In this document: one piece after another, positions 1,973 through 9,756 of the stretch
Layout: each line of letters begins with the position of its first letter
Numbering within the stretch: the stretch's first letter is position 1
Source of the DNA: Promethearchaeota archaeon
GTDB lineage: Archaea > Asgardarchaeota > Lokiarchaeia > Sigyniarchaeales > SOKP01
Assembly (NCBI GenBank): GCA_011364925.1
Contig: RDOA01000071.1
Coordinates: 1-12,280, forward strand
Reading direction: 5' to 3'
Length of the DNA stretch: 12,280 bases
Position numbers and translations under genes: made by a program
Notes under the pieces: model-generated
The model's input: only the letters and a program-made list of their open reading frames with translations
The model's database searches: none
Told to the model about the DNA's origin: nothing

Positions 1973-2926
1973 CTATTTAGCACTTTCAATGTTGATCTTT
2001 CGGCTAGTGATCTTGACTCCTGCATTTCTAATTTTATTTATAGTGTTATCCACAAGTTGTTCTGCTTCAGATGCTTTTTTCAAACCAGTTATCACCATTT
2101 TACCGGAAGAAAACAATATAATAGTAACATTTGGACTCCCGCTTTTCATGACTAATCCTGGAAATCTCTCGGCATTGAATTCGGCACCCTCAATATTCTG
2201 AGCGATATAATTTAGATCTAATTTCTTGTCGATTTCCATAGAAACCGTTATAATATGCTTTATATTTTTCCGACGCTGTAATACTTTTATTTTTTTATAA
2301 AATTCTTGTAAAGATACTTTTAATTCATTGTAGGAATCTGTTATTTTAGCATGCTCTTCTTCGGAAACCGAATCCATTTCATCTATATACAAAGCTTTGA
2401 AAACATAGGGATTAGATTTCAATTGAGATTCAAAATCAATGCAAAGAGATTTGATTACTTCTTCAATCGCTTTAGTTATTTTCTGATCCAACAATACACT
2501 TATCATCAACATTTCTTTATTTCCACGAGCCCACTCCGAGCGAAGTTCAAAATAATAATTAAAGGATGATACTGTGCTAGATTGGTACTGAAAAAACTTC
2601 TCTGTAAAGGATTGAGTCATAACATCTAAAAGGCTTTCTTTCTCAATATTATTAAGAGCATCCTCGGGATATGCGTAAAATAGATTCGGTCCAGATTTCC
2701 TTTTAAAAAAAGTGAGCGCTATACTAGTCTTTGTCACAATTTTAGCTTCAGGAATTAAAATGAGAGTGTAAGAAACTTCAGGATCAAGAAGCTCATCATC
2801 AACATAAGCTTTACTTATAGGAAACTTAGCCCCATTTTTGTGTACCCTTAATATTTGATTTCGCAAGCTTATACTTCCATATTTTTGTGCTTCTTGGATC
2901 AATTTCTTTCTATCCCTTTCTTCCAT
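1973..2926 (-). CDS. Multidomain protein: putative AbrB-like N-terminus, longin/uDENN-like middle domain, C-terminal single TATA-binding-protein (TBP) repeat
   Basis: The C-terminal ~95 aa (LDLNYIAQNIEGAEFNAERFPGLVMK...IILFSSGKMVITGLK) match one TBP repeat. The middle segment (IALTFFKRKSGPNLFYAYP) resembles the start of a uDENN/longin domain. The N-terminal domain call is tentative. Confidence 0.8.
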   Translation of the reverse strand: MEERDRKKLIQEAQKYGSISLRNQILRVHKNGAKFPISKAYVDDELLDPEVSYTLILIPEAKIVTKTSIALTFFKRKSGPNLFYAYPEDALNNIEKESLLDVMTQSFTEKFFQYQSSTVSSFNYYFELRSEWARGNKEMLMISVLLDQKITKAIEEVIKSLCIDFESQLKSNPYVFKALYIDEMDSVSEEEHAKITDSYNELKVSLQEFYKKIKVLQRRKNIKHIITVSMEIDKKLDLNYIAQNIEGAEFNAERFPGLVMKSGSPNVTIILFSSGKMVITGLKKASEAEQLVDNTINKIRNAGVKITSRKINIESAK

Positions 2927-4715: not shown

Positions 4716-5019
4716 AAAAAATCTAAAATTTAGTGACTAAATGTGAAATAGCCACGATGTGAAAATTGCGAACAGAAAGTTCACCCTTCAAAATCAGTTA
4801 AGCAATGTTGTGATTTAAATTTACAGATTATCTTTTTATCCTTAAATGAATTACAGGATTTATCATTCTATTATAATTCTAATTATAATATAATACATGT
4901 TGCAATTTTGTAATGGTAATAATAGAATTAGAAAATCAGGATTGAGTTAAATGTAATGTAATATATCTTTAAATGAGAATAATAATCAAACTCATAAATC
5001 TTACATAGAGGGATTGTTT

Positions 5020-5463
5020 ATGAACCGTACTACTCGCTATCAAGGGGCTGTTATTCTTAATGACCAAATATTACTAATCAAACAGCGCTATTATAAAGAT
5101 GGACGTGAATACTGGATGTTACCAGGCGGAGGACGAGAGGAAGGAGAAACCGAAGAAGAGTGTATCAAGAGGGAGATTAAGGAAGAGACTAATCTCGATG
5201 TGCTCGTTGAGAAATTACTGCTAGATCTACCAGGGAAAAAAGATAATTTTTATCCGTTCTATAAAACTTATTTATGTAAACCGTTAAATGATAACGCACA
5301 ACCAGGATCAGAACCAGAATTGGAATCTGGGTTGGATCTCGAGATAGTAGAGGTGGGGTGGTATGATCTACATAGTGAGGCTAATTGGCCTACTGATCGT
5401 ATTTTTAAGCGTTTTTTTTATCCTACTTTGAAAAAAGTTCAAAAGATATTAGGTTATAGATAA
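5020..5463 (+). CDS. Nudix hydrolase
   Basis: Nudix box in W-x-LPGGGREEGETEEECIKREIKEETNL. The ATG at 5020 is preferred over the TTG at 5014. Confidence 0.92.
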   Translation: MNRTTRYQGAVILNDQILLIKQRYYKDGREYWMLPGGGREEGETEEECIKREIKEETNLDVLVEKLLLDLPGKKDNFYPFYKTYLCKPLNDNAQPGSEPELESGLDLEIVEVGWYDLHSEANWPTDRIFKRFFYPTLKKVQKILGYR

Positions 5464-5505
5464 ATCCTAAAATAATTCAAAGATTGTATATTAATCGATT
5501 AAATT

Positions 5506-5517
5506 TTAAAGGAAAAA
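5506..5517 (-). terminator. U-rich tract after the candidate ncRNA
   Basis: The minus strand reads CCC-TTTTTCCTTT immediately after the 3' strand of the closing helix. Confidence 0.45.
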
Positions 5518-5520
5518 GGG

Positions 5521-6249
5521 ATCGAAGAAGTTGCAATGAATTCCTAAAGGCTAATGCGTGGTATTTTGGCAATGTAATAGAAGATTGTTCAACAAGTTCG
5601 AAAACTTATAGTCCAATCTGTATCCGAAGATACATCAGGCTCCCATAGAAGCTTGATTTACCAATTTCCACGCAATTAAGCGTATCAATTGATAATACTA
5701 CATTGTTTGCGATACCTCTTCCAATGACCATACTCTCAGGCGTAATCGGATGGAAAAGGCAATGAAATCCCCGAAGGAATTAATTGCGAGATATTGCGAA
5801 TCCTTACGAAGTAAGGAAAGTCTTCACTTAATGCGTTCAAACAATTGGTTTTGAAACCTTTTGTAAGAACCACTCCGGAGATTTAATCGAAATTGCTAGC
5901 ACAGTTCGATTTACCGAATTCTACCCGTTAGGATATTATCCAGTAGCATCTCATGAAGGGTGCGATATCTTTTCCGATGATCACGCATTTAAGCATGATT
6001 AGAGAAGATGCTGATACCCGAAGGTTCATTGCTAGTATTTCATTCCATATTTCTATAAAATGTCTCAATGAGCAACTTATTTTTAATCATTCGTCCGAGA
6101 ACCAATGATATGAATTTATATCCGAGGATATAATCTCTCCGTTAAGGAAAGAAAGTTTTACCTGTTTGTTATACCAGAGGTATTCCAATGGGCTATATCA
6201 TTGAGAGTAAATACCACTTCTCGATATTCACACCGTAAGGTATGAACAT
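5521..6249 (-). ncRNA. Candidate large structured non-coding RNA (about 705-730 nt), family unrecognised
   Basis: No ORF in the six-frame track. Minus-strand UUCG tetraloops cap stems at 5592-5609, 5619-5634, 5766-5781 and 6016-6025. Further hairpins lie at 5801-5817, 5922-5935, 5980-5999, 6116-6133, 6134-6152 and 6224-6249. The ends pair (6216-6225 with 5521-5531), and there are several long-range 7-9 bp helices. Confidence 0.75.
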
Positions 6250-6251
6250 TA

Positions 6252-6277
6252 TATATTTACATCGGATAGTATTTAAA
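6252..6277 (-). promoter_or_regulatory. Candidate TATA box(es) for the ncRNA
   Basis: Minus-strand TTTAAATA (6277-6270) predicts a start near 6248, the base of the first hairpin. The alternative TAAATATA (6259-6252) predicts a start near 6229, close to the closing helix. Confidence 0.45.
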
Positions 6278-6391
6278 TGGGACTATTAAGGGATTATTAT
6301 AAAATTTTGTCGCTAGGTTAAAATCAAAATTTTTTTAAGTCGGATTTACTCGTAACAAATCATAAATAGGTCAGTAATATATCTTTACCAT

Positions 6392-6871
6392 ATGACGCTC
6401 ACATTTTTTGATGGAATGTTCCTATTTATAGCAATTCTTTTGAATGTATTAATAAGCATCATTTTCATTGCGAGGTATCGTGGTCCAGAAGAGCTAGAAC
6501 ATAAAATTGGATATATTGTAATTGCGTGTGCGATTCCATTAGCTTTGATTCTAGTAAATTACATTTTAATTGGTGCAGAAATATGGATTATTATCTATGT
6601 TGTTATCATTATTGGTTTTTTGATCGTTGAAACAATTTTGGACTACATCCTCAAACTCGCCTTCCGAACAAACCTAAAAATCGTAGTGCCTTTTGTTATT
6701 TTCTATTATATCGCATTTTGGGGCTTGTTAGCCATCTCGTTTGTTATTAATTTGGTGTTTGGTTTCATCGTGTTTGGTGCATTTATGATAAGTATAGCGA
6801 TTACAATCTACACTCATAAAAAGGATAAGGACAGAATGACTTTAAAAAAAGAGGATCAAACTAGCGATTAA
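6392..6871 (+). CDS. Hypothetical membrane protein (about 5 TM helices)
   Basis: 159-aa hydrophobic ORF. TATA-like CATAAATA at 6361-6368 fits a leaderless transcript. Its stop codon directly abuts the polB2 stop codon. Confidence 0.8.
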   Translation: MTLTFFDGMFLFIAILLNVLISIIFIARYRGPEELEHKIGYIVIACAIPLALILVNYILIGAEIWIIIYVVIIIGFLIVETILDYILKLAFRTNLKIVVPFVIFYYIAFWGLLAISFVINLVFGFIVFGAFMISIAITIYTHKKDKDRMTLKKEDQTSD

Positions 6872-9292
6872 TTATCCATTCTCTAAAAAACTAGCTAAGT
6901 TCTTCTGATTATATCTCCTCAGAACATTAGACTTAATCGACTCTTCGAGTTCAGGGAATTCAAATGGGAAAATGTTCTCGAAAGCTCTTTTCAGCAACTC
7001 AACGTATTTCTTTTTATCGTATTGGTGTTTCTTATTGTCATAAAGATGAGAAAGGATAACTTTCCTCTCAGGAAAATCTGGATCAGCCTCCGCATTAAGG
7101 ATAATATATCGAACATTTTTACCAGGAGACACTACGACGCCTGATCTCTCTAATTGTCTTGCGGCAACAGCCTGGTACGAGTTGACTTTATACTTTTTCG
7201 GCGTACGCGAGATTCTTTGGCGAATTGTAAGTTCATCTCGCGAAATTTTGCCTGTTTCTATTTTATCAATGTATCGATAGAACAAATTCTTTGCTTTCGG
7301 TATTCTTTTCATGAATTCATCGACAGTAGTTGCGCCTTTGAAGATATCGATAAACGCGTATTGGGCGTCTTTTATTATTTTTGGTGCGTCTCTACGGCGA
7401 ACTTCGATTCCTCGCACTTTTACTTCTCCATTGCTTTTGATACCCCAGTAATGGCTAAGAGCTGGGATGTCTGGTTCTGCGCGCGAGGGAAGAAAAGCAA
7501 TAACATTATAGCGTCCATCCCAGCTCATCGGAATACCAGTGGTTTGAGATATTTCATTGGCAATTTGTTTTGTTACTTCCTCGAACTCCTCAGGAGATCT
7601 GTTTTGTATGTCCTTAAGCCAAATCGAATCGACAATTCCATGAACAATTTTACAACCATGTCCTTCAGCAATTTCAGCTGATCGCATAAGAAATTCTCTA
7701 GCAAAAGCGCAAACGGTCTGATGTGCTTCAATCTTCCCAAAACGGGCGTTTTTGAACCCTAAATAGCCGAAACTTACGACAAGCACCCACTTAAGAGCGA
7801 TATCCACAAAGTTATAGCGAACACTTCCGGTTTTTCGCACATATTCTTTGTACTTTAGTCTTTTTTTCAATGGTAGACTTATTGATTTTGAGATTATGCC
7901 TTGTCTTTTTGTACAGATGTGGAAATCCAACCCAGGAACTTTTATGCCGGTGCCGTCCTCTTTGCAACATTTGCAGTTAACAGTTTCGGAAGAGACATTA
8001 AAAGTCGCCATTAAGGATGGATACATGGAAGAAAAATCTAGCTCTACTACTTGATCATAAACTCCAACAATAGGCTCGTAAATGTGTCCGCCACGATCGC
8101 TTTTAATTAAGTCCATTCCAGTATTGAAGCCTTCGGGACTCTTCTTGAAAGGAGGAATCAGATGATCAAGTTTGTAAGCATTATAATACTGTATTGATTG
8201 AAGTGCGCCCCCGATAGTAATGCGACTCAATCTTTGGAGGGGAATTCGTGATATTCGCGCAACTTCAATAACTCCGGGGATATTACCTTCAGAAAAATGG
8301 AGGCTCGCGTATGTTGCTGTGTCTAAATGTATTCTACCGGTTAAATAGACTTGAGTTTTAGACCTTTGCCTGATTATACCATAAGACATGTAGTGGTCCG
8401 AACCTCCAGAAAGCTCAAAGATTCCGTTTGCTAAAGGTTTTTTATCTCGAGATAGGTAAAGGTCTTTCGTTATTCGGTATTTGGAGGCTCGAGAAACCAA
8501 ATATGGAAAGAGAAATTCGTCTCCATTTTGCGTAAGGATAATATCAGGATCAAGGCGCTCGATTACTTTACTTATTGTTCTTATGGTTTCTGCCTCGCTT
8601 ATCTTCTCGATTTGTATTCTACGCTTTTTATACCCATCCGCTCGAGGAACATTATCTTTATCGTTTTCTACTACTGCAATTTCAGCATAGACAATAGGAT
8701 CGTTGTAATACGGTTTGATCCCTTGGTATTGAATTTTCACATCTAGCCAAACAGCTCTTAATGGAGGTAAATCGTAGAAGAGTTTTTCGTTATCGTCTTG
8801 TAAATCTATAGAAACGAGGCGTAAAATATTCGACTCCCTTCTTTTGCCTTTTTCCACTTTGATTTCAAATTGGCAATAAGACATGGGAAAAAGGTCATTA
8901 ACATAAAAGTACATCTGAACAATGGGCAGATCTGTGTTGTATAAAGTAAAGAGTCCAATTTCATCAATTTCTTTAATTGTTTTTTTAAACACTGAAGGCT
9001 TTTCGACAGTGACGCCAAGTATTCTCGACTTCTCGTGATCTTCCAGCTTCACGTACTTTTCGCAGATTCGCACCTTCTTTACGTTTTGATTCTGCGTTAA
9101 AATGTATTGCATTCTTTTGAAGTCGTTCCCAACATCTACATCATTTTTGGGAACTGCAAAGAATTCAGGAGAAAATTTGTGGAAGATTCTTATTACTTTC
9201 TGCTCTTCTTCAGTTTTTACCCAAAGGATAACCCCTTCGCTATATGTAGATACATCTAAGAGCCACCCTTTGAAAGCTATTTGCGTGTCCAC
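6872..9292 (-). CDS. polB2: Family B DNA polymerase, PolB2 (Dpo2) group
   Basis: Motif A LDFSSMYPS, PolB2-type motif B KWVLVVSFGYLG, motif C HGIVDS in place of YGDTDS, and KVRGIEVRRRD. ExoII is degenerate (NGDEFLFPYL). Also N-terminal GWLLD, a CxCC...C cluster and a C-terminal PIP-like QKNLASF. GTG start. Confidence 0.93.
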   Translation of the reverse strand: MDTQIAFKGWLLDVSTYSEGVILWVKTEEEQKVIRIFHKFSPEFFAVPKNDVDVGNDFKRMQYILTQNQNVKKVRICEKYVKLEDHEKSRILGVTVEKPSVFKKTIKEIDEIGLFTLYNTDLPIVQMYFYVNDLFPMSYCQFEIKVEKGKRRESNILRLVSIDLQDDNEKLFYDLPPLRAVWLDVKIQYQGIKPYYNDPIVYAEIAVVENDKDNVPRADGYKKRRIQIEKISEAETIRTISKVIERLDPDIILTQNGDEFLFPYLVSRASKYRITKDLYLSRDKKPLANGIFELSGGSDHYMSYGIIRQRSKTQVYLTGRIHLDTATYASLHFSEGNIPGVIEVARISRIPLQRLSRITIGGALQSIQYYNAYKLDHLIPPFKKSPEGFNTGMDLIKSDRGGHIYEPIVGVYDQVVELDFSSMYPSLMATFNVSSETVNCKCCKEDGTGIKVPGLDFHICTKRQGIISKSISLPLKKRLKYKEYVRKTGSVRYNFVDIALKWVLVVSFGYLGFKNARFGKIEAHQTVCAFAREFLMRSAEIAEGHGCKIVHGIVDSIWLKDIQNRSPEEFEEVTKQIANEISQTTGIPMSWDGRYNVIAFLPSRAEPDIPALSHYWGIKSNGEVKVRGIEVRRRDAPKIIKDAQYAFIDIFKGATTVDEFMKRIPKAKNLFYRYIDKIETGKISRDELTIRQRISRTPKKYKVNSYQAVAARQLERSGVVVSPGKNVRYIILNAEADPDFPERKVILSHLYDNKKHQYDKKKYVELLKRAFENIFPFEFPELEESIKSNVLRRYNQKNLASFLENG

Positions 9293-9294
9293 TT

Positions 9295-9567
9295 CTATTC
9301 TTTTCCTTTTGTTATTTCCTCTAATTCTCCAATCTTTTTTTCCAATAACCCAATTTTTTTCTCTTGCTCAATTGCAAACGATATGAAAAGGATTTCAGAG
9401 AGCATTGGACGAGCGCTTAGACTGCCAGCGTCGGCGTGAATTCTAGCGAAATTCATCAGTTTATCAAAAACTTTTTGATCCTCTGGTCTCAATGCTCTTT
9501 TGAAATCTTTCCAGCTTTCAATCTCGTGCTCTAACGCAGGCCTAAAAGCAGGCACTGTCCGACCCAT
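9295..9567 (-). CDS. Small PolB2-associated helical protein (arCOG07300-like)
   Basis: Signature MGRTVP-x-FR...W-xx-FKRALR-x-ED-xxx-FD-x-L. It ends 2 nt before the polB2 start codon, the usual gene context for this family. Confidence 0.85.
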   Translation of the reverse strand: MGRTVPAFRPALEHEIESWKDFKRALRPEDQKVFDKLMNFARIHADAGSLSARPMLSEILFISFAIEQEKKIGLLEKKIGELEEITKGKE

Positions 9568-9756
9568 ATTTTACACATTTAGTATTGTTTCAGTATCTCG
9601 GTAAAAAGTCTTTCAAAAAATTTAAAGAAAAATACCTTCGAAATTTTCTAATTTTCATTTTGAAAGAAATAGTGTAAGTAAATCCGCACAACAAAAATTC
9701 GTTCGTTTTTCGAAAAATAAAGATATAAATTGGAGATATTTTGATACAGTGATATA

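Follow-up and report, generated by a model that had tools for sequence, protein, structure and literature searches.

What is specified by a stretch of archaeal DNA that holds no open reading frame (ORF) of at least 60 amino acids on either strand and stands out from its surroundings by its base composition? The question is raised by positions 5464-6391 of the 12,280-nucleotide stretch analysed here (the window; contig RDOA01000071.1, Promethearchaeota archaeon), where the GC content is 38-40%, against about 31% in the window, which has the look of an AT-rich archaeal contig. The gap is flanked by a NUDIX gene and by an ORF for a 159-aa membrane protein. An earlier note on this DNA had, without naming a strand, read 5558-6217 as a compact, multi-pseudoknotted core of ribozyme- or scaffold-like kind, built from crossing long-range helices. 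The analysis makes it highly probable that the gap contains an RNA gene on the minus strand, from about 6247 to 5513, whose product consists of three units with nested helices and is a lineage-specific structured non-coding RNA (ncRNA) of Promethearchaeota, Asgard archaea of Loki type.

The region is present in one copy in its 3.9-Mb genome. Relatives carry it with 79-84% identity and sharp borders (window ~5514 to ~6345), and 49 unique copies were obtained when collections of genomes and metagenomes were searched by profile and by pattern. The natural RNAs fall into four length classes, 262-290 nt (one unit), 345-403 nt (one unit plus an insert), 671-678 nt (two units) and 738-746 nt (three units).

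Unit fold, strand and long-range helices

When 14 single units were aligned with plain MAFFT, 56 consensus pairs emerged, and compensatory double changes were seen in 28 of these. A covariance model, R1, was built from the alignment. Run on the window with filters off, R1 matched the minus strand at 6250-5992 (214 bits, E 1e-57), 5975-5752 (43 bits, E 4e-12) and 5750-5514 (52 bits, E 2e-14); a search of the whole genome returned the same three matches and none elsewhere. All 77 matches of the model lie on the RNA-sense strand. Among 69 distinct unit sequences, 92.3% of cells were paired, versus 81.2% after shuffling and 31-46% with slid partners, and 42 of the 56 pairs showed changes on both sides, with compensatory changes in ten helices. 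The covariation score was 0.29, versus 0.15 shuffled and 0.04-0.07 slid, and none of 500 shuffles reached any of these measures; as a point on the other side, the 69-sequence alignment is fitted to the model and its sequences are related, so that the shuffle statistics overstate significance. The independent MAFFT alignment gives the helices of the model-fitted alignment too.

Each unit is closed by P1 and P2, next to which the P3 hairpin makes a three-way junction; P4 and P9 form a second three-way junction, and P5/P5a, P6, P7 and P8 are arranged in a multi-helix junction (coordinates in Table 1). P4 (7-12 bp, with a CAAUG/CAUUG core) and the P9 hairpin, whose loop is in most cases of GNRA type, both occur in many sequence variants at a constant place. 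Their support comes from a duplex search in each sequence, and because R1 was made without these two helices, their registers drift on the model-fitted alignment. Mutual information of single pairs mainly reflected clade effects and yielded numerous isolated or parallel "pairs", and helix-like stacks alone were therefore used; when all column pairs and all antiparallel stacks of at least three pairs were scanned, covariation was found in nested helices only. The 5' leader hairpin P0 varies by exchanges of U.G, C-G and U-A. Sequence is best conserved in P0, P1, P2 and the P3 loop, that is, at the processing end of the molecule, while the unit bodies keep their helices and not their sequence.

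The strand is given by several observations. The minimum free energy (MFE) of the window RNA is -236 kcal/mol on the minus strand (z = -9.1) and -188 on the plus strand (z = -4.5), and the minus strand was the more stable one in 26 of 26 copies tested (mean -93.9 versus -73.6 kcal/mol). Every significant covariance-model match is on the minus strand. Positions that would be A.C on the plus strand are G.U on the minus strand, where many loops read C(UUCG)G or GNRA. This asymmetry is impossible from duplex DNA, and leaves next to no probability to a DNA-level element such as a replication origin, a miniature transposon, an integration site or a decayed gene. The closing strands do resemble terminal inverted repeats, the borders are sharp, and a small ORF lies on different sides of the region in different genomes; against this stand the compensatory changes, the single copy per genome, the huge depth in RNA libraries (below), indels that are not multiples of three and the lack of any conserved ORF.

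Two long-range helices and a third, candidate one connect the units, all of them nested. P1g, the leader-trailer closing helix, joins a 5' GAGAAG to the 3'-terminal CUUCUY strand. Its predicted probability is about 1.0 in the 12 type-I long forms, namely the window and 11 homologs (one window position, 0.52), and 0.85-0.93 in the divergent copy L007; its outer pair shows C-G, U-A and A-U exchanges in single units. None of the 12 type-I long forms has lost any of the 8 pairs of P3g, whose probability is 0.72-1.0; one pair has changed in a compensatory way (A-U in the window, G-C elsewhere), and G.U variants occur. The strands of P3g are the two halves of the P3 hairpin of a single unit, which looks as though its loop had received units 2 and 3. 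The third helix, Hc, would tentatively pair the 3' P1 strand of unit 1 with the 5' P1 strand of unit 3; homologs show a C-G, U.G, U-A series there, and the predicted probability ranges from 0 to 0.94.

The seven long-range complements

How do the crossing helices of the earlier note fare against this fold? All seven segment pairs (designated below by the first position of each arm) are perfect Watson-Crick complements, and several do cross by coordinate. The region 5558-6217 contains 35 complementary 7-mers, versus 22.3±5.8 in 200 dinucleotide shuffles, of which 6 reached 35; for 8-mers the count was 13 versus 6.1±3.4 (12 of 200 shuffles reaching it), and for 9-mers 4 versus 1.4 (26 of 200). 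As a class, then, long complements are mildly enriched, but no individual helix goes beyond chance, and a single complement of 6-9 bp is therefore not evidence on its own, by the shuffle comparison that the note had itself proposed.

Conservation among the 12 type-I long forms divides the seven. Three lose pairs in nearly all homologs: 6202/5731 keeps 4-8 of 8 pairs, and outside the window 6033/5694 keeps 4-5 of 7 and 6043/5750 keeps 3-5 of 6. The other four persist: 6209/5558 keeps 7-9 of 9, with G-C and A-U variants at one position, 6176/5712 keeps 7-8 of 8, 6006/5945 keeps 6 of 7, and 6025/5759 keeps 6-8 of 8, yet competes with better-supported partners. Both of the crossings that the note had named depend on the three non-conserved helices. 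Furthermore, none of the seven is present in the minus-strand MFE structure, their base-pair probability is about 0 in all 12 type-I long forms, and each of their arms is occupied by an in-unit or nested helix. The arm 6025-6032, for example, which had been paired with 5759-5766, has its better-supported partner in 5540-5533.

The origin of the complements is found in the tandem arrangement of the units. The segment 6209-6217 is the 5' P2 strand of unit 1 and 5558-5566 the 3' P2 strand of unit 3; 6025-6032 is a P3 strand of unit 1 and 5759-5766 the P3 partner strand of unit 2; 5694-5700 is part of P4 in unit 3; and 6176-6183 and 5712-5719 have in common the GGUAU/AUACC words of P5a and P2. Because the units are paralogous, an arm of one is complementary to the partner arm of another, from which the listed complements largely arise, and such cross-unit pairs necessarily cross. 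The shared words GGUAU/AUACC and CAAUG/CAUUG supply additional complements. Thus the crossing helices are mostly by-products of internal repetition, and not pseudoknots.

It is in consequence very improbable that the seven helices form together as a multi-pseudoknotted, ribozyme-like core. Their exactness, the persistence of three of them at 6-9 pairs in homologs (one with the G-C/A-U variation) and the size and compactness of the RNA, which would be enough to hold tertiary structure, speak for such a core; yet no crossing stack of at least three pairs covaries in the 69 distinct unit sequences, where only nested helices are supported, and the arms are all taken by covarying in-unit or nested helices. 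What survives of the proposed large compact fold is a compact ncRNA with conserved long-range helices spanning ~140-700 nt, without the pseudoknotted topology and most of the pairings. The segments 6176-6217, 6025-6048 and 5694-5766, said to lack strong local hairpins, do hold strands of non-local helices, but one local hairpin, P5a of unit 1, exists in the first of them.

Transcript, expression and head-to-tail junction

Does this RNA have a gene of its own? A TATA box of archaeal type stands at a nearly fixed distance before the P0 hairpin in 46 copies (Table 1), followed by a less conserved spacer and then by the conserved RNA; from the usual archaeal spacing between box and start, transcription would begin near G6247. 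About 70 nt of conserved sequence precede the box. This pre-promoter region is kept in the 46 copies whatever the upstream gene, and contains two CGAC-W-TAAA boxes (plus strand, TTTTTTTAAGTCGG at 6330-6343 and TTTTGTCG at 6305-6312) separated by a variable spacer of ~20 nt, and TATTAAGGGATTATTA at 6284-6299. It is presumed to be regulatory DNA, and no transcriptome contig covers it, which is weak evidence. At the other end, the RNA reads CUUCUYG, then 2-4 bases, then a U-run, presumed to be an archaeal terminator; a T-run of at least four within 22 nt past the 3' strand of P1 was found in 36 of 43 copies.

With regard to the neighbours, 21 of the 49 unique loci have the family B DNA polymerase gene (PolB) upstream in the same orientation, at 99-176 nt from the RNA start, and 4 others have it there with one small ORF in between; in close relatives the RNA element adjoins the PolB stop codon. 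This is what a 3' untranslated region or cis-regulatory element of PolB would look like, but we judge that reading to be hardly tenable: the conserved TATA box at fixed distance and the conserved region before it argue against it, at about half of the loci another gene (for HSP20, an unknown 125-aa protein or GNAT) takes the upstream place and PolB does not occur within 8 kb, and in the window a plus-strand ORF sits between PolB and the RNA. The RNA therefore has the marks of a stand-alone gene, namely a promoter at fixed distance and a T-run, both recognised by their sequence, expression, and heterogeneous neighbours.

Expression was seen in metatranscriptomes from mangrove, soil and rhizosphere samples. 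Contig cover was taken from four RNA runs, runs X6-X20 (less than 0.2 of sampled words) being left out, and the range of habitats is limited accordingly. Among contigs placed on 4800-7600, those of the four RNA libraries, from two studies, cover 5521-6230; none lies on 4800-5457 or 6304-7600, an absence that is uninformative in contig data. Contig depths in the mangrove metatranscriptomes reach 10,000-37,000, and the summed word depth reaches 31,500 in run X1 and 37,000 in run X3. Carried-over DNA cannot give the depth in X1, because this run holds 175 million letters, whereas a 3.9-Mb genome at a depth of 15,000 would take about 6e10. Together with its close variants, the RNA would account for something like a few percent of all letters in X1 and X3, a rough figure, as contig depths are flat and the sum runs over strains. 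Loose contig ends and variant letters indicate several co-occurring relatives, whose hairpins differ in compensating ways.

In one contig of X1 (141 nt, word depth 1469), 6164-6215 is followed directly by 5521-5609, so that the two ends of the RNA are joined head to tail. Its shorter side is 52 nt long with 1 ambiguous letter, and there are 0 mismatches over 5521-5609. The joined form leaves P0 outside. We think it probable that this contig reports a 695-nt RNA ring; a head-to-tail multimer is an alternative product. The realistic competitor, although one we would not bet on, is an RNA that is real and linear, the joint being an artefact of template switching during reverse transcription, of a chimeric contig or of a tandem duplication in the DNA of a rare strain. 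Several points weigh against the ring in this respect: the junction is supported by a single contig, from one run of four, placed at 90% likeness; the joint could be mimicked by a DNA duplication that escaped notice, or by template switching from end to end on an RNA of such high abundance; no canonical bulge-helix-bulge (BHB) site, with two 3-nt bulges and a 4-bp helix, is present at the cuts, and no 4-bp alternative was found by inspection; and a Pab1020/Rnl3-type ligase was not found in the genome. On the other hand, the junction depth is about a tenth of the local summed depth, which is high for template switching, the 52-nt side with its one ambiguous letter rules out a 31-mer repeat, the match to the window is without mismatch, and 43 probes found the junction 6215-to-5521 in no fetched DNA locus. 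Circular stable RNAs are moreover common in archaea, some of them without BHB sites (PMC12558985, section 4.2). Even as a template-switch product, the junction would mark the mature ends at 6215/6216 and 5521/5522, and with them the removal of the P0 leader.

The position of the ends is regular. In the closing helix, the leader strand is followed immediately by the 5' cut (CGAGAAGU/GG) and the trailer strand, two bases on, by the 3' cut (CUUCUUCGAU/CCC). The helix has ~10 bp and one bulged U, and each of its strands thus has a cut, after U6216 or after U5521, at its 3' end. This arrangement has the two-fold topology of a BHB site, without the 4-bp helix and the 3-nt bulges. The genome encodes RtcB (contig C101, 560 bits) and two proteins with a tRNA-intron-endonuclease domain of EndA type (C29:17820-18044 and C22:22320-22568, in open frames of 200 and 212 aa). 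The two separate genes suggest a two-subunit splicing endonuclease, a type that accepts relaxed BHB substrates.

These elements can be combined into a model. The RNA would be transcribed from its own TATA promoter and end at the U-run. It would fold into three tandem paralogous units of ~245 nt, each a multi-helix junction closed by P2 and P4, with UUCG- and GNRA-capped hairpins, and the nested helices P1g and P3g would tie the units together. Cuts at the 3' ends of both closing-helix strands would then free the RNA of its leader (P0 plus the 5' closing strand) and its U-tail, and joining of the ends would give the 695-nt ring, most likely through an endonuclease plus RtcB.

Table 1. Coordinates of the RNA gene, its helices and signals, and of other features of the window
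Feature	Position	Strand	Remarks
Primary transcript, predicted	5513..6247	-	~735 nt; from folding and covariance-model strand
Processed form	5521..6215	-	695 nt; 3' U5521 or A5522 joined to 5' G6215 or U6216
Unit 1	5992..6223	-	R1 match, helix coordinates from window fold, covariation
Unit 1, P2; P4	6215-6209/6040-6034; 6206-6198/6071-6063	-	
Unit 1, P5; P5a	6193-6186/6168-6160; 6183-6179/6175-6171	-	
Unit 1, P6; P7	6152-6146/6140-6134; 6133-6127/6122-6116	-	P7 loop CUCG (UUCG in most copies)
Unit 1, P8; P9	6109-6100/6095-6086; 6062-6054/6049-6041	-	P9 with GAAA loop
Unit 2	5752..5975	-	
Unit 2, P1; P2	5975-5971/5756-5752; 5970-5965/5794-5789	-	
Unit 2, P5; P3 hairpin	5945-5938/5919-5912; 5787-5776/5771-5759	-	P3 with UUCG loop
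Unit 3	5514..5750	-	
Unit 3, P2; P4	5716-5712/5564-5560; 5705-5696/5579-5570	-	
Unit 3, P5; P5a	5695-5687/5666-5658; 5684-5680/5673-5669	-	
Unit 3, P7; P8	5633-5629/5624-5620; 5619-5603/5598-5582	-	P7 with UUCG loop
P0, 5' leader hairpin	6224..6249	-	6249-6239 with 6234-6224; 9 pairs, 98% paired (69 sequences)
P1g, 5' strand	6216..6223	-	CGAGAAGU; pairs with 5531-5523, leader-trailer closing helix, span ~700 nt
P1g, 3' strand	5523..5531	-	ACUUCUUCG; helix extendable to A6225-U5521
P3g, 5' strand	6025..6032	-	GCAAUGAA; partner 5540-5533, span ~500 nt
P3g, 3' strand	5533..5540	-	UUCAUUGC; partner 6032-6025
Hc, candidate inter-unit helix	6003..6008	-	6008-6003 with 5722-5717
TATA box, archaeal	6270..6277	-	TTTAAATA; start 31 nt upstream of P0 hairpin (44/46 copies) or 30 nt (2/46)
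Conserved pre-promoter region	6284..6343	-	presumed regulatory
U-run UUUUU after closing helix	5513..5517	-	putative archaeal terminator
TBP-domain gene	1973-2926	-	
GyrI-like and NUDIX genes	window		
159-aa membrane ORF	6392-6871	+	between PolB and RNA gene
PolB gene	6872-9292	-	

Identity, distribution and comparison with known systems

Is the RNA a known one? Rfam 15 gave no match in the window at gathering scores and chance-level matches only in 5300-6500 at E up to 10; ten diverse member loci gave chance-level matches only at E up to 1. These negatives include group I and II introns, OLE, GOLLD, ROOL, HEARO and the small ribozymes. Archaeal RNase P RNA (RF00373) was considered and rejected, with no window match even at E up to 10; the canonical RNase P RNA lies elsewhere in the genome (contig C27, 114689-115012, 131.5 bits). 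A CR-I-like string, AAGGAAAGTC (5812-5821), taken as an RNase P hint, was dismissed because it is on the non-transcribed strand. The RNA of the signal recognition particle (SRP) was rejected as well: its archaeal model, RF01857, has no match in the window, and it matches other contigs in 33 of 41 genus genomes, among them carriers of the present RNA (G002, G013, G014, G005, G007 and G023). These 33 matches are sub-threshold (45-85 bits versus a cut-off of 96.5 bits), and RF01857 finds nothing in the window's own genome (100% complete). The SRP RNA of this group diverges from the Rfam model, and in the window's genome it either failed to assemble or was passed over by the first filter. No published description of the RNA was found in a literature search that was incomplete.

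That the RNA is catalytic, as a self-processing ribozyme or as the putative RNA subunit of an enzyme, is improbable in our view. The 5' cut coincides exactly with the base of a conserved helix, sequence in P0, P1 and P2 is conserved well beyond the needs of pairing, and the RNA is large, compact and abundant, all of which would suit catalysis; but no known ribozyme family matches, the invariant positions are mostly in helices and stable tetraloops and not in junctions, and variation from one to three units fits a scaffold better than a single active site.

The RNA has a narrow distribution. R1 found it in 21 of 42 genus genomes (10 of the 12 of high quality), with one locus each except for two in G013. 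The phylum was sampled evenly with 151 genomes, searched with strict filters: the RNA was present in 9 of the 12 that belong to the genus (10 of 13 if the window's genome is counted) and in 4 of 4 from one sister genus, and was not found in 13 genomes of four other genera of the family or in 125 genomes of 26 other families. It is thus seen only in two genera of one Promethearchaeota family, in one-, two- or three-unit form. The two loci of G013 (C179 and C46, or L003 and L015) are diverged PolB-plus-RNA loci with 79% and 83% identity to the window, and are better explained by two strains sharing a bin than by a duplication, because the estimated contamination is 9%.

The downstream neighbours of the RNA gene are mostly convergent. 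The 125-aa protein found upstream in one lineage has no match in the window's own genome. A membrane ORF of ~150-159 aa lies between PolB and the RNA gene in the window, L007, L021 and L061, and directly downstream of the RNA 3' end in L002, L037, L058 and L093, on the strand opposite to the RNA in both arrangements; either the ORF or an RNA gene cassette of ~840 bp has therefore moved more than once. The ~50 bases past the RNA 3' end (5464-5517, in the 3' flank of the NUDIX gene) have short matches of 82-87% identity in other genomes, including a second site in G024 and a site in a genome of another family (G040), away from RNA copies. Spare copies of the RNA tail or head were searched for in the window, with chance-level 10-12-mers only and none flanking the neighbour genes. 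R1 also has a weak match in the spacer that follows the PolB start, at 9534-9670 on the minus strand (11.5 bits, E 0.015), which is probably due to chance. Two-unit forms (L025, L052, L076 and L085) lie directly downstream of HSP20, next to a thioredoxin-reductase-like gene, and these neighbours, together with PolB at other loci, may give the RNA a faint stress-related flavour.

What could such an RNA do? A tentative answer, which we put forward as a possibility and not as the likely outcome, is that it is a very stable and very abundant multivalent scaffold or decoy, each unit being one putative copy of a binding surface. This would explain that one-, two- and three-unit forms exist in nature, and it is favoured because sequence is conserved at the processing end and not in the unit bodies, because unit number varies, and because the RNA is abundant and likely a ring. 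A more ambitious proposal seems unlikely to us: a multi-domain RNA ring, confined to Asgard archaea and surpassed by few non-ribosomal RNAs in mangrove-sediment transcriptomes, would be the RNA core of a ribonucleoprotein machine or of a self-assembling particle, and would mature by a new cut-and-join route at a leader-trailer helix that is not a BHB.

Apart from the junction, some further points weigh against the account given here. Nested-only folding and helix-stack scans are blind to short pseudoknots or tertiary contacts. In the three-unit form, P1 may pair within units or be swapped between them, and the predicted Hc probabilities are compatible with both. Contig data give neither strand, nor exact ends, nor reliable abundance. 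Finally, no conserved partner protein is found beside the RNA gene, whose neighbours have no common function.

The interest of the RNA is of several kinds. To our knowledge, new classes of large structured RNAs are rare, and almost none are described in archaea beyond rRNA, RNase P RNA and SRP RNA; this one is from Asgard archaea, the archaeal group closest to eukaryotes. The duplication of one RNA fold into two- and three-unit molecules is a rarely documented route to large RNAs. If the ring is true, maturation at a long leader-trailer helix without canonical BHB would represent an unrecognised route of archaeal RNA processing. In practice, the covariance model can be used as a transcriptome marker for these organisms, and the RNA is a concrete target for pull-downs and cryo-electron microscopy in enrichment cultures of Loki type.

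Among known systems, the closest in its processing is that of archaeal pre-rRNA and circular RNAs, in which EndA cuts at a BHB and RtcB or Rnl3 ligates (PMC12558985, section 4.2); leader-trailer helices in pre-rRNA processing are treated in PMC11404451. As in pre-rRNA, a leader-trailer helix would bring the RNA ends together, with cuts 3' of each strand, and as for archaeal circular RNAs there is a head-to-tail product (one contig) and the RtcB and EndA genes are present. Unlike the archaeal circular RNAs, it is not an rRNA, a tRNA intron, a C/D-box RNA or an omega RNA, and unlike BHB-processed RNAs it has ~10 bp between the cuts, no pair of 3-nt bulges, and a single-copy gene with what appears to be its own promoter.

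OLE, GOLLD, ROOL and HEARO are large orphan structured RNAs of bacteria, all in Rfam. The present RNA resembles them in its length of hundreds of nt, its many covarying helices, its narrow range, the lack of coding capacity and a function that is not evident from context. It differs from them by the lack of any sequence or structure match, by being archaeal, by its tandem fold units of variable number and by being probably circular.

In the CsrB/RsmZ-type sponges and the ToxI antitoxin repeats, a repeat RNA binds several copies of one protein. The units described here, of ~245 nt with ~10 helices, are unlike the short hairpins or 36-nt repeats of those RNAs, no partner protein gene is adjacent, and multivalent binding is putative. 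The architecture is the same, in that a structured module is repeated in tandem within one transcript, with a copy number that varies between lineages.

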